IMG/VR virus record: IMGVR_UViG_3300049794_000047
From: a virus
Taxonomy: Duplodnaviria; Caudoviricetes
Direction: 5' to 3' (one strand)
Length of the DNA: 64,000 bases
The notes beneath the pieces are model-generated. The model was not told the origin of the DNA. It saw only the letters and a list, made by a program, of their open reading frames with translations, and did not search any database. The position numbers and the translations under genes are program-made. Positions 11,042-63,198 of this stretch are shown here, piece by piece; positions within the stretch are counted from its first letter, which is position 1; every line of letters begins with the position of its first letter.

Positions 11042-11674
11042 ATTACTTTGGATGCACTTGCTCTAGCGTAAGGGGCTGGACTTTATTAACTTGGTCATTT
11101 GCCCGATTTTCGGACGAAGATCCACCCGAAATGACCAGGTTATTTCGTTCCAGCCCCTAAAGCCCTCTTTGGCATATATCTCGACGGGCTTGCCAGTCTG
11201 ATCCGCGATCTCATGTGCCCAGGCCATGAAAGCCCGCCGGACGCCAGCCCACACGCGTCCGTCCGTACCTTCGGGCCATACATGACGGAGCCGCATTATT
11301 TTTCGATCTCGACTCAGGCGCGCCACGTCTTGCCCCTGGAGCCGCTGACCACTGATCGCGCGACCTTCGATCTCCGTTTTGGGGTCGAGTCGACGGCGAA
11401 CTGGACTGTGTGCGAGGGAGCGTCGCGGTGTCCGTGGGTCTCCGAGGATTTCTTTGACCTCTTTGGCAAGCTGGGCCTCTGTTTTCTTCACGGGGTGGAT
11501 CTCCTCGCTTTGGACCTCTCCTTCGTCGTCAATATCGCGCGGGTCGTACAGCCACACTGACTCACTGAGCGCATTGGCTTTTTCTTGGGCGACGCGCCGC
11601 GCGTGGATCTCCGGGGCTAAACCAGCCGCTAGTTGATTTCCGTGTCCGGTGTCGATGTTCCAATATCTAGGCAT
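11042..11674 (-). CDS. hypothetical protein with KKTEAQLAKEVKEIL motif; C-terminus altered by MITE
   Basis: Without the MITE it ends ...KEGFTLEQVHPK*. Confidence 0.65.
11072..11157 (+). mobile_element. 86-bp MITE copy 1 (TSD TAA)
   Basis: TIR GGGGCTGGA...TCCAGCCCC flanked by TAA/TAA; replaces the C-terminus of the 11674 gene. Confidence 0.93.
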
Positions 11675-14348: not shown

Positions 14349-14952
14349 CGAGTGCCGTTGAGCGTGGGAGTTGCACCGGCTGCACCCGCGGCGACGGCGA
14401 CGCTCCGGCGCAAGCGAAGGTGACGGGCGACGAGGGACGAGGGAAGCTCTGTAAGAAGCCCTTGCTGACCAGTAGTCGCGTGCCTCCTGTTTGAACCTTG
14501 TGTAGGGGTTATGGCGATCCTCCCCATGTAGCCGCAGCTCCTACCATGGAGGGTACGGGGCAAGGTTCGGACATGCTTGTGGATCCAGGTGTGTTCTCCC
14601 TGTTCTCCCCTATTATAAAGGAAGTAGTACAGGAGAAAGAAACATAGGCACCTCACGAAAGCGGCCCCGCCCTGATAGAGGTTGGGGGGATCATTCGTAC
14701 AAGGGGGATCAGGGCGAGGGAGTTCCGTGGAAAGCTTTGGTGTAAATAACCAAGTGTACCAAATAGTTAGGCCTGGTCTAGGCCTGGTTTACCCCTCGTT
14801 TAGGGCTGTACGTTCAGCCGATCAGCCGTGCCTCCTCTGAGCTTTCCGTAAGGAGCTCCTAACGGTAGAGCCCGCGGATGAAACAGCTTCAAGACTGAGG
14901 TCGGTTAGTAGGAGCTTGACTCTGGTCTTCACAAGGTGTAAAATCCTACGAG

Positions 14953-15027
14953 ATGTTTCACGATGGGTACACCAAAAGACAGGTGGCCCTATACTTGCAA
15001 GGCTCTATCAAAGCGGCCCTGAAGTGA
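14953..15027 (+). CDS. mini-TnpA leader peptide (24 aa)
   Basis: MFHDGYTKRQVALYLQGSIKAALK*; GTGA overlap with tnpB. Confidence 0.7.
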   Translation: MFHDGYTKRQVALYLQGSIKAALK

Positions 15028-16193
15028 GAAAACCAGCGACTCCAAATACGGTGGATCGCGGACACGTAATTCGCCTCGATCCGACCTTTGCCCAGGCGAA
15101 CGCACTCTCCCGTGCCTGTGGAGTTTCGCGCTTCGTATACAACTGGGGTCTCTCCGAATGGGATCGGCAGTATAAGGCGGGAGAGAAGCCCACCGCGCAG
15201 AAGCTCAAGAAGCAATTCAACGCGATCAAGCGTGAGCAGTGGCCGTGGATGACGGAGAGTCCTCGCGATGCAAACAGTCAGCCGTTCGCAGATCTGGGAC
15301 GCGCCTACTCCAATTTCTTCGCTTCCTGCAAAGGAACGCGGAGGGGCCGCAAGATCGGGCGGCCGACCTATCGTAAGCGTGGCGTTCACGACTCCTTCTA
15401 CGTTGCCAACGACAAGTTCAAGGTCTGGCAACGCGGCAAGCGGGGAGTCGTCCGCCTACCCGTGATCGGCGATGTGCGGATGAGGGAACCCCTGCGCTGG
15501 CAGGGGAAGATCCTCTCCGCCCGGGTGTATCGCAGGGCGGATCAGTGGTTCATCGCGATCAACGTGGAGACGCGCGTCACGAAGCCCCACGTTCACTCTC
15601 GCGCAATTGTCGGAGTGGATCTTGGGCTCCGGACCGCCATGGTCCCCTCGCACGGCGATCCCATCGACGGCCCGAAGCCTCTTCGTACAGATCTACAGCG
15701 TAGCGCTCGCGCGAATCGCGAGCTCCACCGTCGAAAGAAAGGAGGGGCGAACCGAAACAAGTCTCGAATCAGGGTGGCCCGCATTCACCAGCGGATCGCC
15801 AACGTTCGGAAGGACTGGTGGCACAAGGTCACCACCGATCTCTGTCGTGATAACCAAACGATTGTGATCGAAGACCTGCAAATAGACTTCATGCGGAAGA
15901 ACCGTCGATTGTCGAGAGCGGTGCTGGATGTGGCGCCCGGGATGTTCCGACCCCTGCTGCTCTACAAGGCGGCTGTGTACGGCAGTCAGATCATCCTTGC
16001 GGATCGACACTATCCCTCGACACAGCGATGTTCGGGCTGCGGAAACATCAAGACGGGGGACAACAAGCTGGGTCTTGGCGTGTCTAGGTATTTCTGTGCC
16101 AAGTGCGGTTATCAAGAAGATCGAGATCGGAATGCCGCACTAAATCTTGAGCAGTACCCTCGGCTTGAGGGGAACTGGAGTCGCGAGACTTGA
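15024..16193 (+). CDS. tnpB: TnpB RNA-guided nuclease (IS607 type)
   Basis: VGVDLG / IVIEDL / DRDRNAALNL; CSGC..CAKC; close paralog of 1049..2320. Confidence 0.93.
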   Translation: MRKPATPNTVDRGHVIRLDPTFAQANALSRACGVSRFVYNWGLSEWDRQYKAGEKPTAQKLKKQFNAIKREQWPWMTESPRDANSQPFADLGRAYSNFFASCKGTRRGRKIGRPTYRKRGVHDSFYVANDKFKVWQRGKRGVVRLPVIGDVRMREPLRWQGKILSARVYRRADQWFIAINVETRVTKPHVHSRAIVGVDLGLRTAMVPSHGDPIDGPKPLRTDLQRSARANRELHRRKKGGANRNKSRIRVARIHQRIANVRKDWWHKVTTDLCRDNQTIVIEDLQIDFMRKNRRLSRAVLDVAPGMFRPLLLYKAAVYGSQIILADRHYPSTQRCSGCGNIKTGDNKLGLGVSRYFCAKCGYQEDRDRNAALNLEQYPRLEGNWSRET

Positions 16194-39201: not shown

Positions 39202-39325
39202 TCTCGAGGCAGCTCGTTCGATTGCGGGGCGTTCGATCGGGCTTGGACACCGCCTCAGTCTCGAACCGCGGGATTTAGGGGCAACCACATCGAATCAGGG
39301 GCAGGCGAATGAAAGGCGCCTGTTA

Positions 39326-39411
39326 GGGGCTGGAACGAAATAACCTAGTCATTTCGGGTGAATCTTCGTCGGAAAATCGGTCAAATGGCCAAGTTAATAA
39401 AGTCCAGCCCC
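39326..39411 (-). mobile_element. 86-bp MITE copy (TSD TTA)
   Basis: TIRs and TSD visible. Confidence 0.93.
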
Positions 39412-39562
39412 TTAGCGATCCTCGACGGAGAAGCGACAGCGATTCAATGTCACACGGGCGCAGTACGACATCGTGGACACCCCTCGCCGCATCCTGGCAG
39501 GGGAACAGAACCACAGCGGCCCGCCGACGGTTGCAACCCGCCGACGAGCCAAGGAGTCCACG

Positions 39563-39880: not shown

Positions 39881-40325
39881 GTTTCTGTTTCGCGCGTGTC
39901 TGCTGATCTGGGTCGGCAAGACGGCAACACACGTTCACGATATAACGGTCGTGAACGTCTCGATCACGCGTCCGTCGCGAACGATCGCGATCCCGCGGCT
40001 ACCCGAGAGTACGCCCCACGGGCCGTCCCAGTAGTAGAGGGAGTCACCGGGTCGACAGACGCTGCGGATGAGGCGGGGAGGATGCTGCTTGCCCTCGAAG
40101 TCTATCCATCCCCCGCCGCGTTGGAGGACCAGCTCGTCGCGTTGCCATGGATCGAGGTCCGGTCGCGCGGCGATCACGTCGGGTGTGAGCGGATAAAGCG
40201 TCAGTCCTTGGTGATTGATCATGGGATGTCCTTAGCCAGTTGATTCCCTTCGGGTTCGCGAAGCTGGGAGAGACAGTGGACTTGATTGGGAGGCCGGCGC
40301 TTCCAGTCATCGACGAATCCTCTTA

Positions 40326-40411
40326 GGGGCTGGACTTTATTAACTTGGGCATTTGCCCGATTTTCGGACGAAGATCCACCCGAAATGACCAGGTTATTTC
40401 GTTCCAGCCCC
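40326..40411 (+). mobile_element. 86-bp MITE copy (TSD TTA)
   Basis: The TSD is the stop codon of the 40412 gene. Confidence 0.93.
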
Positions 40412-41290
40412 TTAGAGATCTGGGTCTGGATCCCAGCCGAAACCCGGAGGTGTTCGCTCGAACTTCGCGGGGACCGGCGGTAACTGTGTCGCGGTTTGGA
40501 AGTCGATTGATGTGCCGTTGAGTCGATTCTCTGCTCGTCGAATGGGTAACGGCAGAGATGGAAGGGACGGCCGGATCTCCTCTCCGAAGATCAACATCTC
40601 GAACGGGTGTCCCCTCAAGGTTTCCTCGTCAACACAGGTCACGACCACGACGATGTCCTGGCAAGGCTGACACGTGGTCATTGTAAGAGCGCGGCCAAGC
40701 TCGGCAGTCTCGGCGCCGATCACTCGGATCGGTACGACGATGTGCCCCTTGCCCGCCCTCTGTTCGATCTCGGTGGAGATCTCGAGAACCGGCAGGCCCT
40801 GGAGTCGAACGGCCCAGGTCTCACCTGGAACATCCTGGGAGCACGGGAATTGGCTGCAGTTCCCGACCTTGAGATCGTGGATGACGAAGTGTCGCGCAAG
40901 TCGGTCCGGAATCGCGACGCGGCGCCCACGAAATGGCACCTGGGGGCGCACGGTGATTTGCGCGGACTGCTTGGGGAGGATGGGCACACCTACACAGAGC
41001 GCAAGCATGGAATCTCGTACTTGCGGCTCTTGCTCGGTGACCTTCTCGGCGCGTAGGTGTTCCCATGCCTGGAGGTAAGCGCACACCTCGTCGTGAGACC
41101 CCATGAAGGTCGATCCGACGGCGGCCTTTCCGTCGACACAGCGTCGAACGGCACCGCGTTGTTGATCCCAGCTGATGATCTCGATCCCGAGATTGCGGGC
41201 ACGCTTCATGAGGTCGTCGGGTGGTCTCATGGCTGGCACGCGTATCCAGTCAGCGGTGACCGACGCTTCATTCCTGGTCTTGGTCGTCAT
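40412..41290 (-). CDS. beta-rich repeat-domain protein (1 unit)
   Basis: ILPKQSAQITVRPQVPF..FVIHDLKVGNCSQF..DVPGE..QDIVVVVT. Confidence 0.75.
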   Translation of the reverse strand: MTTKTRNEASVTADWIRVPAMRPPDDLMKRARNLGIEIISWDQQRGAVRRCVDGKAAVGSTFMGSHDEVCAYLQAWEHLRAEKVTEQEPQVRDSMLALCVGVPILPKQSAQITVRPQVPFRGRRVAIPDRLARHFVIHDLKVGNCSQFPCSQDVPGETWAVRLQGLPVLEISTEIEQRAGKGHIVVPIRVIGAETAELGRALTMTTCQPCQDIVVVVTCVDEETLRGHPFEMLIFGEEIRPSLPSLPLPIRRAENRLNGTSIDFQTATQLPPVPAKFERTPPGFGWDPDPDL

Positions 41291-41682: not shown

Positions 41683-42458
41683 GGCATCACCAGGCGCGAG
41701 AACTCGGCCTCGACCCCGAACTCCTCGATCGCGTGCACGATGCAGCTCAGGTTCCACAGGAGCACCTTCGCGAGCACCTCGTTCACCTGCGCCGCGAACA
41801 GCTTGGAGCGCACGCTGCCGCCGAACTTCGCCTTCATCGCGCCGAACGTCGACTCGACGTTGCTGCGCCGGTGGTAGTGCCTGAGGAACTCCTCGGCCTT
41901 GAGGTCGAAGTAGGCCCACATCTTCCGCCAGTGCTCGTTCGGGTGGTCCATCTCGCGGCTGTTCGACTTGAACGGCACGAAGGGCAGGGCGCCGACCGCG
42001 GCGATCGCATCGAGATTGGGCTCGGCCAGGTACGCCTTGTCGGCGCTGACCTCCCTCATCAGGAAGCGCCGGGCCGTCGCGTGGACGAGATCTTTGAACT
42101 GGAGCGAGTCGCCAGATCCGGTGCCCGTGCCGATCGTGACGCGCGCGGCGGTCACGACGTTCGTGAGCGTCCCGGTCGCGGCGTGCAGCTTCACCCAGTC
42201 GTGGATGAATCGCTGCTCCTTGTGCTTCGCGGCCCGCGAGCCGTGTCTCGTGCGAGATGGGCCTGGCGCGCGACAGATCCTTGATCCGACGATCGAGGTC
42301 AGCGTGCTCCAACTCGTGGATCCGGTCGCACTGCTCAAGAAGCTTGCGCAGTAATTCGAGGTTCGACATCTGCACCATGACGGGATGTCTCTCTCGTAGC
42401 TTGATCGAGAGAACTACGTCGAAGGGTCTGTGACCGGGTCAAAAAGACGTTTTGTCCC
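41314..42458 (-). mobile_element. internally deleted IS4/IS5-superfamily element carrying the HTH-Zn gene
   Basis: 11-bp inverted repeat GGGACAAAACG at both ends; no TSD found. Confidence 0.6.
41679..42250 (-). pseudogene. 5'-truncated DDE (DDE_Tnp_1-type) transposase
   Basis: WVKLHA, SADKAY and YHRRSNVESTF..K.KFG; first catalytic Asp region missing. Confidence 0.8.
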
Positions 42459-44580: not shown

Positions 44581-45862
44581 GGATCGAGTCTACCTCGGGT
44601 GTCCTATGATCAGAAGGGCACCCCTCACGTCGCCCCCCCCACAACGACGGTTACAGCCCCCGATCGGCGACCTCCGTCAGCCGCCGCTGCCCCAGGGTAC
44701 CTACATGGACCTTCAGTTGTCGACGACCAGCGTGATGCCTTGCATGCCGTTCCATGGGTACGGCGGCTTGTCACGCCATATGTTATCGGGGGGCACCTGA
44801 ATTTTTGCCGCTAGTTCATCAAGGTACCCTTGTGCGCCCTCGAGCGAGGGGGCGCCCGTCGTGTGGTGCATCTTGCTGCGCAGCCTGACGGCCCGGACAG
44901 CGGCAACGTCTTGCACGGGTTCGGGTGGTGGAGCTTCCTCAAAGAAGGCCACGTGATACGTCCCGGCCTCCACGTGGTGGAGGATCATGAGGACGTCGAG
45001 TGCTGCCGCTGTGTACGTGCCCTCACCGTTACTGATCAACATGGATTTTCTCCCAGTTCAAAGATCGAGACAGTCATCGTGGCGCCTTGTTACGTATTCC
45101 GTTGAGGAGCGCAGAGCGTGCGTTGCTCCACGCGACAGCGCACTGTGCAAAAGTCTGCCGCCCTCTTGCAGGCGAACAGCAAACTTTTGTTGTCCGTTTC
45201 GCGTTTCGAGCGCATGCCTCTCTACCTGGTCGCTCTGCGCCAGGGTCAGCATATCGACGGTGGCGTGCTCGGTGAAGATCACAACCCCACCGCCCTCTCT
45301 GCCAGCACGAACCGGCGCTGCGTGCCAGGAATCTGCTGACCGTGCACCCACAACGGGTCGCCGGGTGCGAGCTCGAGCGTGAGCATCGGCTGGGGCTCGG
45401 CCACGCCGGGGGTGATCGCGATGATGGGTCGGCCGTCAGGCAGGATGTACTTGGTGCGGGTCATAAGCCAACTCAGCTGTCCGAGGGGCGTGCAGTTGCA
45501 GCCGTGATGGCTCTCCGACACAGTGCCTCAAGTCCTGACCGTGTGTGAGGCAATCGCAACAACCGACGACGGCGCAGGATGTTTCGCGCTCGGCTGTAAG
45601 AGCCAAAGGACACAGTATCCGCATCGCTGGCATCGAGTTCACCGATCTTTGGATCGAAGAACAAGTCAGGGCGCCCGCAGGGCGCCCGCAGGGCGTGAGT
45701 AACCGTCGTGAGATCGACATTGCGGCCAACTCGTAGGCTTGATAGCGTTTCGTTTCTCGATGGGAGGCCCCTTCGTTGTCCAGGCCAAACAGCACCAGAC
45801 CGATGTTTCGGCGTGGCACCGTGAGCAAGTGACCGATCTCATGCGCCGGCCACTACAGGTTA

Positions 45863-45948
45863 GGGGCTGGACTTTATTAACTTGGTCATTTGAACGATTC
45901 CCCGACGAAGATCCACCAGAAATGACCAGGTTATTTCGTTCCAGCCCC
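45863..45948 (+). mobile_element. 86-bp MITE copy (TSD TTA)
   Basis: TIRs and TSD; located at the stop of 45949..46284. Confidence 0.93.
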
Positions 45949-46852
45949 TTACCGCTTGCTCGCGTTCAGAATGGCGACACAGCGCGCACGCGCTTCGGCC
46001 CGTTCCGCGAGTTGCTTTGGGCTCGTGTCATACGTCACGCGCATCGCGGCGATACACCATGCCTTGGTGTTGAGCGAGGAGAGCGGGGGGCTACCAAGCG
46101 CGAGGATTTGCTCGTCGGTGATCGTCTCGGCAGTGACAGTACCCTTGAACCGTGCGGGATGAGAGGCCGGGTCGTTAAGGCGCGGACAAGGCTGGTAGAT
46201 CGGCACGCGGCGCTTGCCATGCAACTCATCCACGATTCGATGGCCCTTGACGGTCAGCCGTGCATGACAGACACCGCAGCGCATCTACTTGCGCTCCTGG
46301 GCGGGCCAGTCCGTGCGCGCTGCCAACGGCTTTGTACACGTCGTAGAATTCTGCCGGGATGATGTTGTTGACGATGCGCGCTGACCCGAGGCACACGCCG
46401 TACTCTTCAGTACGTTGGATGTCAACCGAATAGGTGTGATTCATACAGTGCTCCAAGGGAGCAACCAAGCCACCCTGGGTAGTTCAGTACCCGTGTCTCT
46501 GGGCCCCTGGGAAGAAACGACCATGGTCAACTCGCTCCGAACTTTGCTCCCGGCGCGAAGGCCAGGAACGCGTCGATCATCGCGATGTGGCGGGCCACTG
46601 GATCCGGGCTGGCCCATTCGGGCGGCACCGTGTAGCAGTCGTTGTCGGTCAGGCACGAATCCTCAAGGTACGCGTGACCTGCCCAGATGACCGCGTCCCA
46701 GCCAAGATCACGACAGTGCTGCTCGTACCACTCGACGATGACGGCGGCGTTCCCGCTAAACACCTTGGCACGCCCAAGGCCAGGCCCCTCAGCGTCAGGA
46801 TTGCCGACGAGCGGAAACGCTTCGAAGTGCGAGTAGAGACACAGATCGTGAC

Positions 46853-47466: not shown

Positions 47467-47634
47467 ATGGTTGCCACAAAGGACAAACAAGGCTTGGCCG
47501 TGCTCGTCCAGGTAAAGATCAACCGACGCGCGGCTCACCTCCTCCGCAAGCGCGCGAAACGTGCCCTGCGTACACAGGCGAGCTACCTCCGCGCTCTCAT
47601 CTACCGCGACCTCGGACTCATTGAGGCCGATTAA
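47467..47634 (+). CDS. small ribbon-helix-helix-like regulator (55 aa)
   Basis: VLVQVKI..LLRKRAK..TQASYLRALIYRDL; below the ORF-track length cutoff. Confidence 0.55.
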   Translation: MVATKDKQGLAVLVQVKINRRAAHLLRKRAKRALRTQASYLRALIYRDLGLIEAD

Positions 47635-47720
47635 GGGGCTGGAACGAAATAACCTGGTCATTTCTGGTGGATCTTCGTCGGGGAATCGTTCAAATGACCA
47701 AGTTAATAAAGTCCAGCCCC
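47635..47720 (-). mobile_element. 86-bp MITE copy (TSD TAA)
   Basis: TIRs and TSD; located at the RHH stop codon. Confidence 0.93.
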
Positions 47721-47766
47721 TAAGAGTGTTTCGCCCTCGATGAACTGAACCTGGAGAAGCTCTCCC

Positions 47767-48457: not shown

Positions 48458-50572
48458 ATGCTCGACAATACGACCGACACGACCGCCGCCGACACGACCT
48501 CCGCCAGTACTACAACCATTCCGCCAAAAGCGCTCAAGAAGCGCGCCCGCAAGACCTCGACCAAGCCTACACGGATCTACAGCTATCGGATCTTGCCTCC
48601 TGAGGATCCAGAGCACCGGAGGCTGGTCGTCGAGCAGTTCTGGCTGGCGCACCAGTACCGTTGCCGGCTGACCGAGATCGAGATCGAGCAGCGCAGCCGC
48701 TTCCGTGCAATCGACCTGGATCACCCGCTCACGCGCGAAGCGACCTCCCACTGGGAGGCGCAGAGCGCGGCGCTCGACGCGACCTATGCGGCGCTGCGCG
48801 CAGCAAAGGCTGGCCGCGCCCCCGAGCATCGCGACGATGAAGCGATCAAGCAGCATCTGAGGTCGCTGAAGGGGGCCTGCACCAAGGCATGGCGTGACGT
48901 CAAGGCAGCGCGCGCACAGCCCGAGGTGAAGGCCCACCATCAGCCGCGCTACGCCGCGGCTCGAGAGACGACCGCTGAGCAACGCCTCGCCGCGCGAGCG
49001 TCGTTCTCTGCCAGAGGTCTGATGCACGGCACGTACATGTGCATCGAGCACGCCGTGGAACGATCCGTCGACTCGACGGGGCGCCCTCCAAAATTCCTTC
49101 GTTATGAGGGCGAGGGTTCGATTGGGCGCCAGTTGCCACGGACGCGAGACAAGAACGATCGGCTCTACAGCATTACGGCAGATGACCTCTACTCCGGGGA
49201 CGACAGTCGCGTGCGGATGACACCCCTGCCCGTGGGCTGGGAGCAATTGGCGCGGACCGCGCGGCGCCGGATCGCCAAGCCGTACCGTGGGCACGCCAAA
49301 CGTCAGCGTCACGGCGACAGTTGGCAGGAGATCCCGGCCCGCCTCAACGGTCAATACCTCGAGATGCAGTTCGGCTGGGGTCCGGCGAAGCGGCCAAGCG
49401 CCTGGATCCGTTTCCCCCTCACGCACCATCGCCGGATGCCCGAGGACGCCGAGATCTTGTGGGTGTACGTCCACCGCTGGCGCGTCGGGATCCACTACGA
49501 GTGGCGGGTGCAGCTCACAATCGAGAGTGAGACGTTTCACCGGCCACAGGTCCCGATCGCGGTCGGTGGCACCTGCGCGATCGACATTGGCTGGCGACGA
49601 ATCTTCGACACGGACGGAAGTCAGATCGGCCTGCGCGTGGCCTACCTGGTCGACGAGCATGGGCAGGAGCGCGAGATCCGCGCGCCGGACGGTCTCTGGC
49701 AGCGGCTTGCGAAGATTTACTCGATCGCGCAGATCCGCTCTCGAGAGCTCGATGCTGCACGCGATCGCCTGGTCGTCTGGATCAGCGATCGGCCGTTGCC
49801 CCCATGGTTCACCGACCGCGCCAAGGGGCTCGCGATGTGGCGAGCGCCGCGCAAAATGCAACGTCTCATTGACACCTGGCAGCGGGAGGAGAATCGTTTC
49901 GAGGACGACGCGGCGGCGCTCACCATGCTCCAGGCCTGGGCGAAGCACGATCGGCACCTCGGGAACTGGGAAGCCCACATGCGCGATCGAACGATCGCCC
50001 ACCGGCGCGAGGTGTGGCGTCAGGTCGCCGCTGAATTGGCACGCACGTACCAGACGATCCTCGTCGAGGACGGGCTGTGCCGATCGGAGGGCCGCGAGCG
50101 CCAGATGAAGATTGTGGACATCGAGGGTTGGGACAAACGTCCCCCAGAGGAGGGCGACCCGCACGAGGGGCGCGAGCAGCGTCGTCAGTCGCGGATGGCC
50201 GCGCCCGGTGAGCTGCGCCTGGCCATCTCTCACGCGACCCACAAGACTGCGTCCACTGTGATCGATGTGGCGCGAAGCAAGAAGTCGACGCGCGAGTGCT
50301 CCTGGTGCGGACACGATCAAGAGCACGCCAACTTTGCGGTCTCGATTGAGATCCAGTGTGAGGGCTGTGGGCGCAGTTGGGATCAGGACGCGAATGCAGC
50401 CCGCAATCTCCTGCACCACCGCGGTCTGACGAGTGGACAGGTACCACCGATCCCTACGAGCGGTCCTGTGCTACTCCTTGACGGGCAGGCGCGCGCACAA
50501 GGCAAACGGGGGAAACGACGCGGCGATGCAGGTAGAGGGCGTCGGCGGGAGGTTAGAGAGACGACCGTTTGA
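48458..50572 (+). CDS. cas12m: type V CRISPR effector, Cas12m (V-M/V-U1)-like, 704 aa
   Basis: QFWLAH, GEGSIGRQL, HRRMPEDAEI, AIDIGWR, WRAP, ILVED, AAPGELR, CSWCGH..CEGCG..DQDANAARN; directly followed by leader and array. Confidence 0.85.
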   Translation: MLDNTTDTTAADTTSASTTTIPPKALKKRARKTSTKPTRIYSYRILPPEDPEHRRLVVEQFWLAHQYRCRLTEIEIEQRSRFRAIDLDHPLTREATSHWEAQSAALDATYAALRAAKAGRAPEHRDDEAIKQHLRSLKGACTKAWRDVKAARAQPEVKAHHQPRYAAARETTAEQRLAARASFSARGLMHGTYMCIEHAVERSVDSTGRPPKFLRYEGEGSIGRQLPRTRDKNDRLYSITADDLYSGDDSRVRMTPLPVGWEQLARTARRRIAKPYRGHAKRQRHGDSWQEIPARLNGQYLEMQFGWGPAKRPSAWIRFPLTHHRRMPEDAEILWVYVHRWRVGIHYEWRVQLTIESETFHRPQVPIAVGGTCAIDIGWRRIFDTDGSQIGLRVAYLVDEHGQEREIRAPDGLWQRLAKIYSIAQIRSRELDAARDRLVVWISDRPLPPWFTDRAKGLAMWRAPRKMQRLIDTWQREENRFEDDAAALTMLQAWAKHDRHLGNWEAHMRDRTIAHRREVWRQVAAELARTYQTILVEDGLCRSEGRERQMKIVDIEGWDKRPPEEGDPHEGREQRRQSRMAAPGELRLAISHATHKTASTVIDVARSKKSTRECSWCGHDQEHANFAVSIEIQCEGCGRSWDQDANAARNLLHHRGLTSGQVPPIPTSGPVLLLDGQARAQGKRGKRRGDAGRGRRREVRETTV

Positions 50573-50632
50573 AGGAGGTGCTCGCGATCAGGGATGTGAG
50601 GTCGCGCGATGATAATTGAATAGTGATTGACT
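50573..50632 (+). promoter_or_regulatory. CRISPR leader A
   Basis: GGTGCTCGCGATCAG..ATGATAATTGAATAG..TGACT; homologous to the leaders ending at 54248 and 55332. Confidence 0.8.
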
Positions 50633-51258
50633 GTGATGGAGCTTGCCCGAGCGGTTGACGTTCGGGACGCGTCGCGCTGCCGATTCACAGCGACGGCGGG
50701 GGATAGAGCTTGCCCGAGCGGTTGACGTTCGGGACCTGCGATAGTCGCCCACACGCAGGCGGCTGCAGGCGGTGATAGAGCTTGCCCGAGCGGTTGACGT
50801 TCGGGACCGCATAGCATGTCTGGCACACGGACCTGCGCGCACCGGGTGATAGAACTTGCCCGAGCGGTTGACGTTCGGGACGGTGAGCCGATCCCACGGA
50901 TCCACGTCGCGCCGCGGAGGTGATAGAGCTTGCCCGAGCGGTTGACGTTCGGGACTCGTGCCAGATCGAGAGACCATCGTGTGATAGAGCTTGCCCGAAC
51001 GGTTGACGTTCGGGACTCCGGCTCGTCTCCGTAGCGGACGTACACTGTGCTTAGAGCTTGCCTGAGCGGTTGACGTTCGGGACGAACGCGGTCAGGCGTG
51101 CCGACGGCGGGTACGAGATGTTTGCCCGAGCGGTTGACGTTCGGGACTCCGGCGAAAGAATCTTCCTGGGAGTCTGCCCGAGCGGTTGACGTTTTGGGAC
51201 CTGACCACGTCCACGAAGCCGCGTGATTGAGCCTGCCCGAGGGGTCGACGTTCGGGAC
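50633..51258 (+). CRISPR. array A, 10 repeats GTGATAGAGCTTGCCCGAGCGGTTGACGTTCGGGAC
   Basis: 36-bp repeats with unique spacers; degeneration increases distally. Confidence 0.95.
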
Positions 51259-51414
51259 TGTCAGTGCGAAACTCATGCTGTCCGCAGGATGCACGTGCTG
51301 GAACTTACCAAGCGGTCGTCAGCCCCTGCGCGCGGTTCTATGCTTCGGGTTGATGGGAGGTGCCCGCACAAGATAAGCACAGGGAACAACACAGCTTTGC
51401 AGGGAAAGGTGGCT

Positions 51415-51804
51415 ATGGATCTGGCCGATCTGGGAGTGATGGAGCCTGCCCAAACGGTTGACGTTCGGGACGACGCGGACCCGCGCGCATCACGACGTCC
51501 GCGAGCTGTCGGCCGACTGACCAGCAAGGAGCAGAGGGCCGTGCGGACGGCGCTGCGGTTCCTGCGGCTGCGCGTCGGCGCCTGGGGGCCGCTGGCGAAG
51601 GCCCTGCGGTACGAGTGGGACAGCATCCAGAAGGTCGCCACCGGCAAGCGGGCCGTTACCCCAGCGCTCGCGCTGCGGGTGGCGCGGTTCGCCGGGATCC
51701 CCATGGACGAGCTGCTCGCGGGGCAGTGGCTCTCGGCACGGGTCTGCCCGCACTGCGGCCACCCGCCCGAGGACTTCGTCGACGAGGAGACGATGGTCGA
51801 GTAG
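51415..51804 (+). CDS. HTH-zinc-ribbon protein read in frame through a CRISPR repeat
   Basis: VMEPAQTVDVRD (repeat) fused to RLTSKEQRAVRTALRFL..CPHCGHPPEDFVDEETMVE; start uncertain. Confidence 0.7.
   Translation: MDLADLGVMEPAQTVDVRDDADPRASRRPRAVGRLTSKEQRAVRTALRFLRLRVGAWGPLAKALRYEWDSIQKVATGKRAVTPALALRVARFAGIPMDELLAGQWLSARVCPHCGHPPEDFVDEETMVE
51436..51471 (+). CRISPR. single repeat preceded by cas12-tail remnant (first repeat of interrupted array B)
   Basis: GTGATGGAGCCTGCCCAAACGGTTGACGTTCGGGAC. Confidence 0.85.
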
Positions 51805-51885
51805 GTCAAGGCAACGAAATTGGAGCAGTGAGGTCGTTTCGTACCTGACGTGATAGAATCGAGCGAATCACGTTCTGGAGATCCC

Positions 51886-53151
51886 ATGATCAATCGCCTC
51901 GGACTCTACCGACCCCTCCGCCTCCCGCTGCCGATGTCGAACGGGTTTAACATCCTGCCGACGCAGACGGCACAGATCACCGTCCATCCACAGACGAACA
52001 AGTTCTACCCGGAGCGCCTCCTGATCAAGGAGGCCGCTCACTGGAAGATCGACGCGATCCGCGTCGGGGATCGAGACAGTGCCCTCGTCCAGAATCTCCC
52101 AGGGTCGATGTTCGCGCCCGACGCACCGGGGCGCTTCCCGGGTTGCGGCGAGATCGAGATCCCGCCCGGCGGAGAACTGATTGTCGGGGTGACATACACC
52201 GGCCTCCGCGAGGCCGGAATCCCTTTCGAGGCGTGCGTGTTCGGATCCGACGATCGGACGACGATGCCGGTCGCATCGACCTCTCGCCGGGGGGAAAAGA
52301 AGATCGCAACGGCGCGGAGCGAACGCTCGATACCGCACAACCGCTCAACGAAGCTGTCCACGGATCCGATGAAGCGCGATGCGTGGCCGAGTCGTCTCGT
52401 GATCAAGGACGCCTCCGACTGGGTCGTCAACGACGTCCGCGTAGGCAAGGTGTCGATCTTCGCGCAGGCCGGGGACGTCCCAGGAAGCATGTTCTCCGAG
52501 GACGCCAAGAACGCGGGGTCCGCGATCTGCCTGGGGCGCCTGGTCGCCGGAGACAAGTTCTCGGTCATCGCGACGTACATGGGAACCGCGTCCGACGCTG
52601 AGTTTGTGTACGAACTCTACGAAACCCATGCCGAATCCGAAGCTGCCGACCTTCCAATCGCAGTGATCCTGCCGATGTCGACGGGAATCCCGATCCTGCC
52701 GAGCACGTCGGCGCAGATCACGGGCCGATGCCAACCACCGGATGGCTACTTTCGTGGGATTGGTCCCCGCCAGGGCTTCATAGCCGAGCGGATCGTCGTC
52801 GAAGGAGGCGCTGACTGGGTCTTCAACGATGTCAGGATTGGGCGCACGTCGCAATTCGCGCAGGTCGGGGACGTCCCAGGTCTCGCGTTCAGTTCCGGGA
52901 CCCTGGGAGGCGCGGTGTCCTTCGACGCTGCGCAGGCCGGGATCGACGTCGCCATCGTGACGACTCACATCGGACCTTGCGAGGTCGGAGCTGCCTTCGT
53001 CTGCGGAATCCTGGGTAGCCTCGTCGACCTGGCTGAGGTCGACACGTCGCCCAGACGCGGCCGGATCCTGTCAGCCCAGCGAGTCGACTTGTTCAGGCGC
53101 GAGCCCCGTGCCGTCATACTCGACGACCACGCCACGGCGCTGGAGCGATGA
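51886..53151 (+). CDS. beta-rich repeat-domain protein (3 units)
   Basis: ILPTQTAQITVHPQ..PERLLI; DWVVNDVRVG..GDVPG; ILPSTSAQIT..DWVFNDVRIG; GGAG RBS. Confidence 0.8.
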   Translation: MINRLGLYRPLRLPLPMSNGFNILPTQTAQITVHPQTNKFYPERLLIKEAAHWKIDAIRVGDRDSALVQNLPGSMFAPDAPGRFPGCGEIEIPPGGELIVGVTYTGLREAGIPFEACVFGSDDRTTMPVASTSRRGEKKIATARSERSIPHNRSTKLSTDPMKRDAWPSRLVIKDASDWVVNDVRVGKVSIFAQAGDVPGSMFSEDAKNAGSAICLGRLVAGDKFSVIATYMGTASDAEFVYELYETHAESEAADLPIAVILPMSTGIPILPSTSAQITGRCQPPDGYFRGIGPRQGFIAERIVVEGGADWVFNDVRIGRTSQFAQVGDVPGLAFSSGTLGGAVSFDAAQAGIDVAIVTTHIGPCEVGAAFVCGILGSLVDLAEVDTSPRRGRILSAQRVDLFRREPRAVILDDHATALER

Positions 53152-53399
53152 TCTTCGCTGAGAGGGATCCTAGAACTGTCGCTGCCAGGGCGTGCGTTGA
53201 TCACCATGAGCAAGGAGCCGACGAGTGAACGATGATTCCGCAACTTCGTGCTCGGGGACGTGTCGGAAAGTCATCTTTCCCTTTTCCTTCTGTAGTTGGT
53301 ACAAGGAGTCCGATGTGCATCGAGGGTGGGGCTGGAGCGACTTCTCCGTTGAGAAGCTGATCGTCAAGACTCGGGAGGAAGAAGATCCAATTGTCAACC

Positions 53400-53675
53400 T
53401 CCAAATCGACGGGCGCCCGGTCCTCTCTTGCTTGCAGATCGCATCCGAGCCGATGACACAGCGTGTGGACGAGAAGGGGATGAAGTGGTTCGCCAAGACG
53501 TGGGTGCCGGAGGTCGCCACCACGGTGTCGCGGCGCGGCCCGACGACAGCGTTACAGGCCTCGGTCGACGAGCGCAACCAGTGGACCGGCGAAGAGGGGG
53601 CGTTCTACGGCGACATGTTCGTGCCGATCGATCAGCCGCTCGAGTGGGTCGCGTGCCGCGGCGGCCCCCGCTCCG
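53400..53675 (+). pseudogene. fragment of a myxobacterial-type secreted protein
   Basis: VSRRG..EEGAFYGDMF..ACRG pattern, cut off at a repeat remnant. Confidence 0.4.
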
Positions 53676-53679
53676 TCAC

Positions 53680-54077
53680 CCCGAACGTTCGGGACCTCGG
53701 CCTGCTCGCTGGCATGCTCCGCAGGGCAAATGTGATAGAGCCTGCCCGAACGATTGACGCTCGGGACACCAAGCGCGCGAGGGAACTACAGGCACGAATT
53801 CGAGGGACAGCATCTGCCCGAACGGTTGACGTTCGGGATGAAGGCAAGTGGTCGCCCTCTGGGATAGAGCCTGCCCGAACGGTTGACGTTCGGGACGGAG
53901 CGGCCAAGCGCGAAGCAGCGCGTGGGGCGTCAAGGTGATAGAGCTTGCCCGAGCAGTTGACATTCGGGACCAACCGGCAGAAGTGCGCCGATCGCGCGTC
54001 GTGATAGAGCCTACCCGAGCGTTTGACAGGGGTCGGCGTACATGATGGAATCTGCCTGAACGGTTGACGTTCGGGAC
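53680..54077 (+). CRISPR. array B, about 7 degenerate repeats
   Basis: Same repeat family; first repeat loop-deleted (CCCGAACGTTCGGGAC). Confidence 0.85.
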
Positions 54078-54748
54078 GACAGGTAGATCTTGACCGCTCA
54101 GAATTCAGACTTCAATGATGTCGCAGGAAACGACGCGGAGACTCAGGTAAAAAGCACTGTCGTGACAGGGGGAGGGCGCGAGACCCCTTTGAATAGAGTC
54201 CGTGCAAGTGTAGTAAAGAATGTAATGGCAATTGAATAGCTGTTGACTGTTGATGGGGCTTGCCCGAGCGGTTGACGTTCGGGCAATCTGTACGACGCGC
54301 TGTGCCCAGGCTGGGTGATGGGGCCTGCCCGAACGACACCCGTTCGGGACCCCTGAGGCACGTCGCGGCTGATGTTGGCACTACGCGTGATAGAGTTTGC
54401 CCAAAACGGTTGACGTTTGGGGCCGGCAACCTGGCTGGTCAGGATCACGGGAGTGATAGAGCCTGCCCGAGCGGTTGACGTTCGGGACCACCGCGCGAGG
54501 ATGACGACACGACAGATTAACCGGCCTGCCCGAGCGGTTGACGTTTGGGACGATGAGCACTTCCTTGGGGCGCTAGAGCCTGTCCGAACGGTTGATATTG
54601 GTAATGCGGATACTGCTCGCGACAGCCGCTTGTACCGGCTGTAATAGAGCCCGCCCGAGCGGTTGACGTTTGGGACAAGGAGACAGCAACTGCGTACGAA
54701 GTGCTGGGCAATGTGATAGAGCCTGTTCGAACGGTTGACGTTCGGGAC

Positions 54749-54783
54749 AACCCGGCGGTGCTGAAAGCGCTGTCGGTTTCTTT
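54749..54783 (+). terminator. terminator-like spacer, copy 1
   Basis: 11-bp stem, GAA loop, TTTCTTT tail. Confidence 0.55.
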
Positions 54784-54836
54784 GTGATAGCACCTGCCCG
54801 AACGGTTGACGTTCGGGACATCATCGGCGGAAGTTA

Positions 54837-54922
54837 GGGGCTGGAACGAAATAACCTGGTCATTTCTGGTGGATCTTCGTCGGGGAATCGTTCAAATGAC
54901 CAAGTTAATAAAGTCCAGCCCC
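54837..54922 (-). mobile_element. 86-bp MITE inserted in a CRISPR spacer (TSD TTA)
   Basis: TIRs and TSD between the repeats at 54784 and 54928. Confidence 0.93.
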
Positions 54923-55332
54923 TTAGCGAGATGGAGCTTGTCCGAGCGGTTGACGTTCGGGACGTAAGGCTCGGCCACCTGCCGGGTCGTGCTGGAGCTC
55001 GCCCGAGCGGTTGACGTTCGGGACTGCGGGTCTTTGCCCCGCTTTGGCGGGGCCTCGATCGCAAGATAGAGCTTGCCCGAGCGGTTGACGTTCGGGATCG
55101 CAATCCAAGCAGGGGTGCTCGTCGGTCAACCGGGCTGCGTGACGACGCCAACCCACGCGAGCGGTCCTATGCGTCGAGTTGATGGGAAGGCGCTCGCACA
55201 AGATAAGCACAAGAAACGACACAGCTTTGCAGGTAAGGTCAATGTCGAAATGTTGAAGAGCCGTCTGTTTGAATGGGGTGCTCGCGATCAGTGCAGTAAG
55301 ATCGCGAAATGATAATCGAATAGTTGTTAGCT

Positions 55333-56835
55333 GTGATGGAGCCTGCCCGAACGGTTGACGTTTGGGACAAGTGGGACGGTGACGACGTGCCGGCCTTCAT
55401 GCGTGTGATGGAGCCTGCCCAAACGGTTGACGTTTGGGACGCTGGATGCGCGATGAGGACGACGAGCAGGCTCGAAGTGATGGAGCCTGCCCAAACGGTT
55501 GACGTTTGGGACCTACGCGAATGCGAGCGGTACTTTTGAATCACCGAGGCGTGATGGAGCCTGCCCAAACGGTTGACGTTTGGGATCCGGCGTGCGGACC
55601 GTGCGCCTGTGGTGCAAGCGGGAGTGATGGAGCCTGCCCAAACGGTTGACGTTTGGGACCCAAAGTCACCGAGGCGAACCGACACGGGAGATACGGCGTG
55701 ATGGAGCCTGCCCGAACGGTTGACGTTTGGGACGGGTGGACAGTGATCACCGCCATCGTAGCGCTCGCGTGATGGAGCCTGCCCGAACGGTTGACGTTTG
55801 GGACAGCCGTCGCCACGGATCCACCGCATCCACCTGCCTCATGTGATGGAGCCTGCCCGAACGGTTGACGTTTGGGACGAGAAGCAGGTCGCGGACACGC
55901 GGCGGCTGGTCAACGTGATGGAGCCTGCCCGAGCGGTTGACGTTTGGGACGCGGACAGCCCGACGCCCCCCTGATGAGCCTGCCCGAACGGTTGACGTTT
56001 GGGACGCGCCGTACGCCGTCGTGGGCACGGTGAATCCATTGGTGATGGGGCCTGCCCGAACGGTTGACGTGTGGGACGAGCTGGTGAGCACTTCAAACCC
56101 GGCATGCCGACTTGTGATGGCGCCTGCCCGAACGGTTGACGTTTGGGACTCGTCGCCACGCGTCCGATGCTCCCGGAAGACGCACGTGATGGAGCCTGCC
56201 CGAACGGTTGACGTTTGGGACCGGTGATGGGGCGTCATGGATCGTCGCCCTTCACGCGTGATGGAGCCTGTCCGAACGGTTGACGTTCGGGACAACCCGA
56301 CGGTGCTGAAAGTGCCGTCGGTTTCTTTGTGATAGCACCTGTCCGAACGGTTGACGTTCGGGACGCCGCGTGGCTCCGCGTGTGATAGAGCCTGCCTGAA
56401 CGGTTGACGTTTGGGGCCAACGTAAGGACGCGGCGCGTAGATCTGAATCGCCGTTGTGATAGAGCCTGCCTGAACGGTTGAGGCCAGGAGCGTGCGCGAT
56501 CGACGTCGCCATGCTCGCGGTGATAGAGCCTGCCCGAACGGTTGATGCTTCGGGACTATCCGACTGAACTGCACAAGCGCGGATTCAACGGCATGATGGA
56601 GACTGCCCGAATGGTTGACGTTTAGGACCAGGCTGCGCCGACAGCAACCGCGCGCCGGTTAAGCGTGATGGAGCCTGCCCGCGCGGTTGACGCTCGGGAC
56701 ACCTGTACGACGCGATGCGAGGAATGGACACAGGCCGGGTGATGGAGTTTGTCTAAGCGACTGACGTTATGGACGTGAGAATTCCGACGCGCACAAGATG
56801 GAGTGCGCTAATAGGCGCTTGCCCCAATGGTTGAA
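55333..56835 (+). CRISPR. array D, about 22 repeats GTGATGGAGCCTGCCC(G/A)AACGGTTGACGTTTGGGAC, own leader about 55160-55332
   Basis: Best-conserved block; mostly 35-38 bp spacers. Confidence 0.95.
56294..56328 (+). terminator. terminator-like spacer, copy 2
   Basis: Same hairpin with 3 pairing-compatible substitutions. Confidence 0.55.
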
Positions 56836-56873
56836 CCCCTCGACTACTTCACCAAACTCGCGAGGAAAACTGC

Positions 56874-61270: not shown

Positions 61271-62569
61271 AAGAATAGCGGCGACTGAATATTTTTGGGG
61301 CCGGTACTGGGAACAGCGTCGCAGCTGACCAAGCAACCGTCTCCTCGCAGCTAACGAGCAGCTTCAAAGCCCCGGCCAGTGTGTTAGGATGAGCCTATGA
61401 CCACCCAGGAACATGCTCAGAAAAGTGACGGTGCCCGTGCGAGGCAGGCGCCGGGCCTTTTGGAATGCGATCATTGCGGTGGCGGCGGTCGACATTGGTA
61501 TATTCCGCTGACAGATGAAACGCTCTGTCACTCGTGTTACGAGTGGCTACTCGATCGACTGAGCCCAGAAGGCGCGGCGGCGCCTGGTCAAGTCGCAGCC
61601 CGGTTTCTGGCGGGACTTGGCGACGATTCCGCTCGGCTTCCAACTCCTCGAAGAAGCGCGGGCGCAGCGCTTCTTGTGCCAGATCCTCTCGAAGAGCCCA
61701 CGCAAGATCCCGGCCGCCGCCGGCGAGAAGATTGAATGGTGTGTCAAGCACGTGCCTGACCTGCCCATCGTGCTGTCCGAAGACAAGGGCCTCGTCTACG
61801 GCAAAGCTCTTGTGCGACGATTGGCCTGAGTACATCGAGCGGTGGCTCACCTGGCGTCCGCGCGGCCTCGTGGTTGCGGTTGCGGTGGCTCAGCGGTGGA
61901 ACGTCGGCATCGACCAACGGTTCCCCAAGAACGTCGTTAGGTTCGACGGGTCGAATTTCGCTTATGTTCGAGAGCGCATGCAGGAGATTCGCGCGACGGC
62001 GGGTCAGGCATAAACATGGATGTGCAGGGAACGGATCGGTCTATACACGCAGCTGCGAGGGGTACGTCTACATCGGCGACCAGGGCATCGAAGTCTGTGA
62101 GACCTGCGGGGGCTGTACATGCTGCCGTCACGCGGACGTCGACCACCGCAAGGCTCGCTACAGGTGCTGGCACAATCGTGAGAGCACGGCGTGTCTGCTC
62201 GTTGGTAAAAAGCAACTTCAACCATGACTGCAAGAGAGACCAACGCCCATGAGAACCCGGGCGTTGTCTGCCTTGCAACTAGACAGGACACCCGACATGG
62301 AAACCAAGATGACTCTGGCACAAGACGAAGGTCCAGGCCCAACGCCGACATTCGACATCACGCTTGGGCACAGCGCTCGGCACTCACAGGGTCTCCTGCG
62401 ACTTCGTGCCGGGATCGAGATCTCCGGCACCACTGAGGCCACCCTGACCGCGCGCCCGACCAGCGCGTTTTCGCCCGCGCAGGCTGGCGATTTTACCGCC
62501 ATTCGCGCGTCGATTTGACATCATTGATTTGAAGGTTGGGTTTGTCAGTGTGTTCGCTGACGACAGTAA

Positions 62570-62655
62570 GGGGCTGGACTTTATTAACTTGGTCATTTGA
62601 ACGATTCCCCGACGAAGATCCACCAGAAATGACCAGGTTATTTCGTTCCAGCCCC
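62570..62655 (+). mobile_element. 86-bp MITE copy (TSD TAA)
   Basis: TIRs and TSD. Confidence 0.93.
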
Positions 62656-63198
62656 TAACGGTGCCGTCGCGAGGCATGCTGACGGCAGTACCTGTCTATA
62701 CTGTCCCGCGCGCCGGTACGAGGCCGTCTATCGATTCAAGCACACAACGTCAGTGCTAGACATCTTGGCCAACCCTGGACCTGCGCGGGCGCTCGTTACC
62801 TCGTCCGCGCCCAGCATACTCGGTCACGAGATCTCGGCGAGGACCTGCCATGCATGGCAGGACATTTCGATCACGGTGCGCGCCTATGAGGGCCACCCCA
62901 GTGACTTCGAGGCGATTCTCCTGGGTGACTTTCGAGAAGCGGGAATCTGTCGCCAGGGGCACGACGGCGAGGACATTTTCGTTGACGATGTAGTCAGGGC
63001 ATACCTCATGACACCGGACGGACGGTACGACCCCACGCTCGACGACGTGCTTCGCCACGTGCAGGGCCTTTGCCCTGCCTGGGTAACAATGCGCGATGAC
63101 GTGAGCCGTCTCGTCGAGCTGTACACGTCGGGTGGTTGACCTGGCCTCTCACGATCGCTGAACGAGGCCACCGCGTCAGGGACTGGCAACCCCGCGAG

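Follow-up and report, generated by a model that had tools for sequence, protein, structure and literature searches.

Subtype V-M CRISPR-Cas12m systems were reportedly described by Wu et al. (2022), and CRISPR arrays without Cas1-Cas2 occur in huge phages, for example in Cas12j/CasPhi loci. Virus-borne mini-arrays are said, by Medvedeva et al. (2019; a reference of PMC10120712), to be used in interviral conflicts. A canonical CRISPR leader combines a promoter with integration signals next to repeat 1. Cas12m systems do not need a trans-activating CRISPR RNA (tracrRNA), and T/C-rich protospacer-adjacent motifs (PAMs) have been reported for them (Bigelyte et al. 2024, PMC11013384); leader RNA hairpins tune the production of CRISPR RNA, for example with Cas13 (PMC13187072). 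Here we describe a Cas12m-like locus in a 64,000-nucleotide (nt) stretch of Caudoviricetes DNA, IMG/VR record IMGVR_UViG_3300049794_000047 (the window, to which all unprefixed positions refer), in which the 3' end of the effector gene, together with the leader that follows it, recurs within a long composite array.

The effector gene, called cas12 below, is the following feature:

48458-50572, + strand: Cas12m-like effector gene with a PF07282 TNB domain; Cas12m chains are its best solved relatives

Its protein has 704 amino acids (aa), counted from the start used by a 99%-identical homologue. The match to PF07282 (TNB zinc-ribbon) reaches 36.9 bits, above the Pfam cut-off, and Cas12m chains match the protein at E values of 5.6e-43, 4.7e-25 and 6e-17 (phmmer against PDB chains), while the RuvC-III motif WDQDANA is conserved in the family. 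With Cas12m homology, a RuvC-like domain and a zinc-ribbon (TNB), the effector is predicted to belong to subtype V-M.

The locus resembles subtype V-M in that its effector is homologous to solved Cas12m and is directly followed by 36-nt repeats with a 3' stem-loop, and in that adaptation genes were not found nearby (no Cas1/Cas2 family within 10 kb of cas12 in eight related loci, and none among 20 larger open reading frames, ORFs, of the window). The 5'-TTC flank of a single protospacer would agree with the reported T/C-rich PAMs. Unlike published V-M systems, the protein is about 100 aa longer and about 30% identical to a plasmid-borne Allomeiothermus relative (tblastn of plasmid records), the arrays have 60-100 repeats with several internal leaders, and the carriers are phage-like elements of 100-430 kb. 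As in huge-phage arrays and viral mini-arrays, the array sits on a mobile element and has no adaptation module in the regions searched, and the arrays of this group are aimed at least partly at kin; those other arrays, however, are short and have one leader, whereas the ones here are mosaics of great length, with leader copies and terminator-like spacers as punctuation. Like canonical leaders, this one has a conserved element whose distance to the leader-repeat junction is fixed, and a putative conserved RNA hairpin, but it is only 60 nt long, belongs to a unit that extends upstream into the effector frame, and occurs several times per array. Composite arrays and inter-array recombination are familiar in principle. 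In the literature that could be searched we found no account of multi-leader arrays like these, and nothing relevant on internal or duplicated leaders, which is not proof of absence.

Results

The end of cas12 and its leader recur within the array

The repeated module is about 190 nt long and comprises the last ~125 nt of cas12, the stop codon and the 60-nt leader, its 5' limit at the home locus being defined by the extent of the internal copies. We searched for it with a profile hidden Markov model of the last 800 nt of cas12 plus the leader, built from ten relatives, and by local alignment to the cas12 end. The following copies were found:

50446-50632, + strand: home copy, with cas12 tail codons at 50446-50572 and the 60-nt leader at 50573-50632
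51313-51412, + strand: internal copy 1, tail only, frameshifted and without leader (profile positions 657-764, E 1e-6)
54126-54249, + strand: internal copy 2, a 24-nt tail fragment at 54126-54149 and a decayed leader with its motif kept at 54226-54239
55146-55332, + strand: internal copy 3, the full module including the stop-codon position (profile match 55146-55329, profile positions 668-852, E 8.5e-31)

Copy 3 is by far the clearest. Aligned to the cas12 end it scores 114 at 55158-55324 (shuffles 18.6 +- 2.4, maximum 29), with 74% identity over 168 nt that runs through the stop codon and the whole leader, and it has both the leader hairpin (55281-55289 with 55300-55308) and the motif (55310-55323). 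Its frame, read from 55091, is still open and translates to SGPMRRVDGKALAQDKHKKR, which resembles the Cas12 C-terminus; the translation given for this copy in the first-pass annotation is thus recovered. Copy 1 is 78% identical to copy 3 and scores 44 against the cas12 end at 51324-51409 (shuffles 18.3 +- 2.2, maximum 28). The tail fragment of copy 2 scores 33 at 54126-54149 (shuffles 17.8 +- 2.1, maximum 26), and this copy is weak in the profile search (54122-54244, E 0.1). All three scores exceed their shuffle maxima, which confirms the earlier observation that the cas12 end recurs at 51332-51408, 55161-55236 and partly 54127-54148. A decayed QCE..QDA..NL protein end, proposed in the same annotation for 51260-51310, did not survive the comparison: it scores like shuffles against cas12 (p 0.34) and gives no profile hit. 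Longer cas12 remnants upstream of the units, namely this one and the CGCAATC that follows the repeat at 55098, were likewise not significant, either pairwise or by profile.

The joints between these copies and their surroundings were compared with independently assembled Logan contigs. Contigs of run X1 bridge 50926-51464, 52676-54861 and 55068-55361 with zero differences, the last of them, which covers copy 3, as an exact 294-nt contig; runs X2 and X3, from other studies, also bridge 54009-54403 at the joint of copy 2, making three runs in all. Local mis-assembly is unlikely, because independent short-read contigs bridge all three joints. The result also goes against a stitching together of strain variants, an outcome that the first-pass annotation had named as fatal to its claim.

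Internal leaders and terminator-like spacers divide the array

The array starts 60 bases 3' of the cas12 stop and runs, with about 60 repeats of 36 nt, through 57582. Over its ~7 kb it is not uniform but consists of sub-arrays A, C, D, E, F and G, with interruptions of 175 nt after A, 170 nt after C and 233 nt after E:

50633-51258, + strand: sub-array A, 10 repeats decaying distally, 83% pairwise identity, spacers of 16-38 nt
53732-54077, + strand: sub-array C, 6-7 repeats, partly decayed
54250-54819, + strand: sub-array D, 9 heterogeneous repeats, 70% pairwise identity
54749-54783, + strand: terminator-like hairpin in spacer position, copy 1, with an 11-bp stem, a GAA loop and a T-rich tail
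54928-55097, + strand: sub-array E, 3 repeats
55333-56364, + strand: sub-array F, 15 repeats of its own variant, 92% pairwise identity, spacers of 35-38 nt
56294-56328, + strand: terminator-like spacer, copy 2, after which decaying repeats follow
56380-56871, + strand: decaying repeats after the second terminator-like spacer, 79% pairwise identity
56872-57582, + strand: sub-array G, the array end, 11 repeats of a third variant

The sub-arrays differ in their repeat variant, with changes in the repeat stem that compensate each other. Together with the internal leader copies, these differences bear out the view that the array is composite and that sub-arrays restart with a leader of their own. 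The best preserved of the blocks is sub-array F, at whose head the full internal unit stands; it surpasses the cas12-adjacent sub-array A (92% against 83%). The terminator-like spacer is 35 nt long; all three differences between its two copies preserve + strand pairing, and the same unusual repeat variant directly follows both. After the second copy the pairwise identity of the repeats drops from 92% to 79%. Such a pattern of repeat decay is what would be expected if leader copies restarted expression and hairpin spacers ended it. Scans for sigma-70 promoters and terminators in the related loci L002 and L006 gave no clear punctuation pattern.

A conserved hairpin and motif mark the leader

Two elements stand out in the 60-nt leader:

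50581-50608, + strand: leader hairpin, a 9-bp stem (50581-50589 with 50600-50608) and a 10-nt loop
50610-50623, + strand: leader motif TGATAATTGAATAG, 23 nt ahead of repeat 1

Both are conserved just ahead of repeat 1 in over 20 loci. The motif, with the consensus (T/A)TGAYAAYTGAATAG, is found 3' of the cas12 stop even in relatives whose protein identity is as low as 26%, and its distance to the first repeat is 23 (+-1) nt in nearly all relatives (Cas12 26-83% identical). When one mismatch is allowed, the motif turns up in just three places of the 64-kb window, 50611, 54227 and 55311, in the home leader and the two internal ones, in agreement with the earlier report that the leader recurs at 54248 and 55332. 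An element-wide promoter role was rejected on the same count, as no other occurrence was found. No other part of the internal copies is kept as well as the motif, which shows 0-3 changes over its 14 nt in every copy that bears a leader; copy 2 keeps it though the hairpin is gone and the remainder is only ~45-53% identical. The preservation of motif and hairpin indicates that selection acts on the leader portion of the internal units.

The hairpin loop is 11-12 nt long in most relatives, compared with the 10 nt of the window's home copy. Across 17 leaders, genuine and internal, 96.7% of the hairpin cells are paired. Changes on one side of the stem give + strand G-U pairs in 18 instances, against five unpaired cells, and two pairs are changed on both sides. 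These data provide moderate evidence that the leader forms a conserved + strand RNA hairpin.

The motif probably is, or contains, the array promoter. In distant relatives it opens with a perfect TTGACA, 17 nt before a TGTGAT or GGTGAT at the leader-repeat junction. Three loci (L019, L020 and L034) have a different, equivalently placed hairpin that leads through a U-tract to TTGACA, and their hairpin and U-tract look like a cas12 terminator. The motif may also mark the site at which new repeat-spacer units are added. We regard this deeply conserved motif with its fixed spacing as the most promising thread of the analysis.

The cas12 tail looks like a passenger

Identity among relatives at codon positions 1/2/3 is 87/90/56% in the cas12 core, 61/61/45% in the tail and 65/68/74% in the leader. 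The periodicity of 61/61/45% indicates that the tail is translated but weakly constrained. Among more distant relatives the distance from the W of WDQDANA to the stop codon varies between 90 and 207 nt, whereas that to the leader motif is kept at 186-244 nt. Where L019 and L020 match the window's tail in position, they have a plain non-coding leader. As the tail position can be non-coding and the stop wanders, the unit would be the whole variable stretch from the Cas12 core to repeat 1, and it is best described as a leader in the wide sense, through part of which a reading frame happens to run.

The possibility that the tail acts as a structured RNA, similar to the omega-RNA that overlaps tnpB 3' ends, had been raised in the first-pass annotation. 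There is a likeness, since in both cases a region of conserved length that is not protein core overlaps the 3' end of a TnpB-derived gene and adjoins guide DNA. The overlap here, however, has no conserved structure or covariation, and what it adjoins is a repeat-spacer array and not a single guide. Folding of the tail with RNAalifold gave one weak 6-bp helix with two double changes and several breaks (covariation term +0.45); among the sequences in which the helix is broken are the window's own gene and several internal copies. Whole units fold with mixed results across relatives, some of them better than shuffles (z down to -3), and the two full units of the window fold no better than shuffles (z +1.07 and 0.0); whole-unit RNA structure was rejected as a candidate on these scores. 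In the proposed check of covariation against codon-type conservation, the tail shows weak codon-type conservation, next to no covariation and no unusual folding energy, and it is only the leader hairpin that has the look of a conserved RNA structure.

A search for an anti-repeat that allowed up to 5 mismatches in 26 nt gave nothing on the minus strand, and alignment of the tail to the repeat or anti-repeat gave scores equal to those of shuffles. A hidden repeat-like sequence in the tail (shared word CGAGCGGT) that could serve as a recombination site was rejected for the same reason, its scores being those of shuffled repeats; the best repeat-to-gene alignments fall at different places in different relatives. 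The only Rfam match was a sub-threshold fluoride riboswitch inside the array, which we took as chance. By its sequence, then, the cas12 tail looks like a passenger without sign of a function of its own.

The same module occurs inside the arrays of relatives

About 12 internal copies were found in five genomes: three in the window, one in L001, five in L002, two to three in L006 and one in L013. L015 carries a remnant of an internal copy. All internal copies terminate at the leader-repeat junction or short of it. Although the profile covers 800 nt of cas12, in all ~12 copies the reach into the gene is at most ~125-140 nt before the stop. Copies start at profile positions 657-681 (six copies), 709, 730, ~760 (four copies) and 812, and their 5' limit coincides with the end of the conserved Cas12 protein core.

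The window's internal units are 71% identical to the resident cas12 end and at most 68% identical to any sampled foreign end; those of L002, L013 and L006 are likewise slightly closer to their resident end. This closeness fits duplication within the lineage or exchange among close kin better than distant import.

Two related loci show rearrangements of their own. In L003, about 360 nt (L003:8318-8676) separate the cas12 end from the leader, and the protein's C-terminal tail differs beyond that point; the leader itself, with hairpin and motif, is intact ahead of a 5-repeat array. In L002 the middle of the CRISPR repeat is iterated three times (L002:17285-17346), directly preceded by a terminator-like hairpin (L002:17246-17266); these tandem partial repeats may be a slippage product within the array.

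Array segments are exchanged and duplicated while spacers are rarely shared

Over 8.3 kb that take in cas12, the leader and spacer 1, L001 and the window are 98% identical. Every spacer of L001 past spacer 1 differs from the window's, and the internal unit of L001 is 79% identical to that of the window. Since only this leader-proximal spacer is shared, array segments have clearly been exchanged, and the pattern fits recombination; that of polar spacer addition was not seen in this pair. Within genomes, more than 15 spacer pairs in L006, L002 and L004 are ~97% identical and partly collinear, which indicates that array blocks were duplicated in place.

Between genomes almost no spacers are common (~350 spacers, 13 related loci), so that new spacers must arise continually by some adaptation route. 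The first-pass annotation had suggested that whole cassettes are captured from related loci and that array acquisition takes the place of spacer acquisition. The comparison of array order in relatives supports the swapping of array segments. It does not support the replacement of spacer acquisition, given the near absence of shared spacers, nor capture of whole cassettes from elsewhere, as it is the resident cas12 end that the internal units resemble slightly more, and the ~97% spacer duplicates point to segmental duplication.

One spacer of L011 (L011:13540-13576; Cas12 71% identical) matches the window at 42175-42206 on the minus strand over 31 of 32 nt, with the 5'-TTC flank mentioned above, a single case. 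This match indicates that the arrays are aimed at least partly at related elements. The protospacer lies in a gene of 358 aa with a weak repressor-like match.

Discussion

Origin of the internal units

The explanation that we consider probable is that the internal units are copies of the leader-proximal end of the locus, placed by duplication or unequal recombination and shuffled among kin, with the leader restarting sub-arrays and the cas12 tail travelling as a passenger. The region is one long composite array of a subtype V-M-like (Cas12m-like) system on a large phage-like element. Tandem or segmental duplication, or else unequal recombination, would have brought the leader-proximal end into the array, the DNA being broken once within the 3' end of cas12 and once within a repeat, and the copies would then have been spread, trimmed and exchanged between related co-infecting elements through recombination across repeats. 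Recombination with the real gene would eliminate any longer direct repeat of cas12, so that only short stumps survive. The leader part would be functional in the internal copies as an array promoter that restarts transcription and perhaps supports spacer uptake, and the internal leaders and the two terminator-like spacers would cut the 7-kb array into separately expressed sub-arrays.

Several points weigh against this explanation. The bridging contigs are local, and the order of the sub-arrays over 7 kb is that of the assembly, not verified by long reads. Six copies, the longest ones, have their 5' limits clustered at profile positions 657-681, unexpected for a random breakpoint, though these copies may descend from one or two events only. 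We infer both the promoter and the terminator activities from sequence features: the -35-like hexamer has decayed to ATGATA or ATGACA in the clade of the window, the candidate -10 TGTGAT overlaps the start of repeat 1 and lacks the conserved A at position 2, the leaders are not called by the sigma-70 scan, and sub-array G has no recognisable leader ahead of it. The covariation of the leader hairpin is not significant against shuffles, because its columns vary little, and its sequence might instead be a palindromic protein-binding site. As to the phage-like nature of the element, no hallmark structural gene was found among the window ORFs scanned, and a scan of IMG/VR gave no match or relative for it.

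Of the alternatives, the serial capture of ready-made leader and array cassettes from other elements, in place of Cas1-Cas2 spacer acquisition, would account for arrays that are completely different past spacer 1 in two 98%-identical elements, for sub-arrays with their own repeat variants, for the end module that they share, in which a terminator spacer stands between a repeat and a variant repeat, and for the lack of Cas1/Cas2 in the eight loci and 20 ORFs searched. It would, however, need an unseen pool in which spacers are still made, as spacers are hardly shared across the 13 loci; moreover, the internal units are no closer to the sampled foreign cas12 ends than to the resident one, and the duplicated spacers within genomes show growth in place. 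We therefore hold such capture to be decidedly unlikely. The same low credence goes to a descent of the units from once-complete extra cas12 genes, that is, from tandem modules of cas12 and array that lost their genes by deletion. Such an origin agrees with the homology of the tail to coding sequence and with the open frame of copy 3, but leaves at most ~140 nt of a 2.1-kb gene to be explained in ~12 copies and five genomes, where independent deletions should leave many stump lengths; no piece of the preceding ~660 nt of cas12 that the profile covers was found in the arrays, a search that did not extend to the 5' two-thirds of the gene.

That tail and leader together form a structured non-coding RNA, an omega-RNA vestige or a tracr- or scout-like RNA needed before each sub-array, strikes us as highly improbable. 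The distance from RuvC-III to the leader motif is indeed kept while the stop moves, the leader has its putative + strand hairpin, and some relatives' units fold better than shuffles. On the other hand, the conservation of the tail is of the codon type and does not covary, its sole helix is broken and the covariation term is slightly unfavourable, the window's full units have z-scores of zero or above, neither an anti-repeat (on either strand) nor an Rfam match was found in the searches described above, and published Cas12m systems need no tracrRNA (PMC11013384). An assembly artefact, the serial joining of strain variants of a single cas12-leader-array locus, is barely credible. The metagenome does hold several strain variants, with alternative joints seen, and repeats assemble poorly; yet each joint is bridged without differences by independent contigs, that of copy 2 in runs from different studies, and the same architecture is present in unrelated assemblies (L001, L002, L006-L008 and L013).

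Duplication and exchange of leader-proximal copies also leave room for a more far-reaching proposal, which we rate as unlikely: the array could be modular, made of cassettes of leader, spacers and terminator that are independently transcribed and traded by related giant phages, with the motif as the cis site for repeat-spacer addition or for cassette recombination, and with a machinery that is not a locus-encoded Cas1-Cas2 but is supplied by the host in trans or is a new activity. If so, the internal leaders would multiply the active growth points of a single array.

The findings bear on how mobile elements that have CRISPR effectors but lack Cas1-Cas2 form and renew arrays of 60-100 spacers. 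At this locus and its relatives the arrays are mosaics of duplicated and recombined leader-headed blocks, and near-identical elements differ in almost all spacers. Three cis elements can be tested: the leader motif, shared across very distant Cas12m-like loci, the leader hairpin and the terminator-like spacers. Internal leaders that are active as promoters or integration points would explain the sustained expression of very long arrays, and could provide design rules for long multiplexed Cas12 arrays.

Other features of the array and the element

Two further insertions, and the solitary repeat that precedes one of them, interrupt the array:

51437-51472, + strand: solitary repeat ahead of the gene cassette
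51473-53679, + strand: gene cassette of 2.2 kb in spacer position, with three genes in the ORF list
54833-54923, - strand: inverted-repeat element of 92 nt resembling a miniature inverted-repeat transposable element (MITE), inserted in the array

The cassette holds a helix-turn-helix (HTH) gene at 51490-51804, a gene for a 433-aa protein with internal repeats at 51850-53151, and a third ORF that starts at 53225 and runs into a partial repeat at ~53676-53697. The HTH gene has only a weak match of the HigA/XRE type; neither Pfam nor PHROG assigns the other two to a family, and the Atlas places them only in viral clusters without a name. In two other runs the depth of the HTH gene is 3-4 times that of its surroundings, suggesting that it also occurs in other contexts.

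At least seven copies of the MITE-like element are present in the window, with inverted-repeat ends and 91-100% alike, the six others at 11068-11158, 39322-39415, 40323-40414, 45860-45951, 47632-47723 and 62566-62659. A contig of run X2 has the same array without the element, that is, the empty site. The read depth of the element is about 70 times that of its surroundings.

Homologues of the Cas12m-like protein number more than 35, at 64-99% identity, on soil metagenome contigs. These contigs, of 100-430 kb, are crowded with small genes without known families and carry an occasional seryl-tRNA synthetase, NUDIX or VapE-type helicase gene, a gene content that fits a jumbo phage or possibly a megaplasmid. 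The window itself has two TnpB/IS605 OrfB-like genes besides cas12, at 1049-2452 on the minus strand and 14916-16193 on the plus strand (phrog_506, E 1e-85 and 1e-95). In a sub-clade of the Cas12m-like family (P0009, P0010, P0012, P0014, P0016 and P0017; ~813 aa) an insertion of ~100 aa follows the first third of the protein, and the precomputed Pfam annotation assigns it to PF03050, an IS66-type transposase family.

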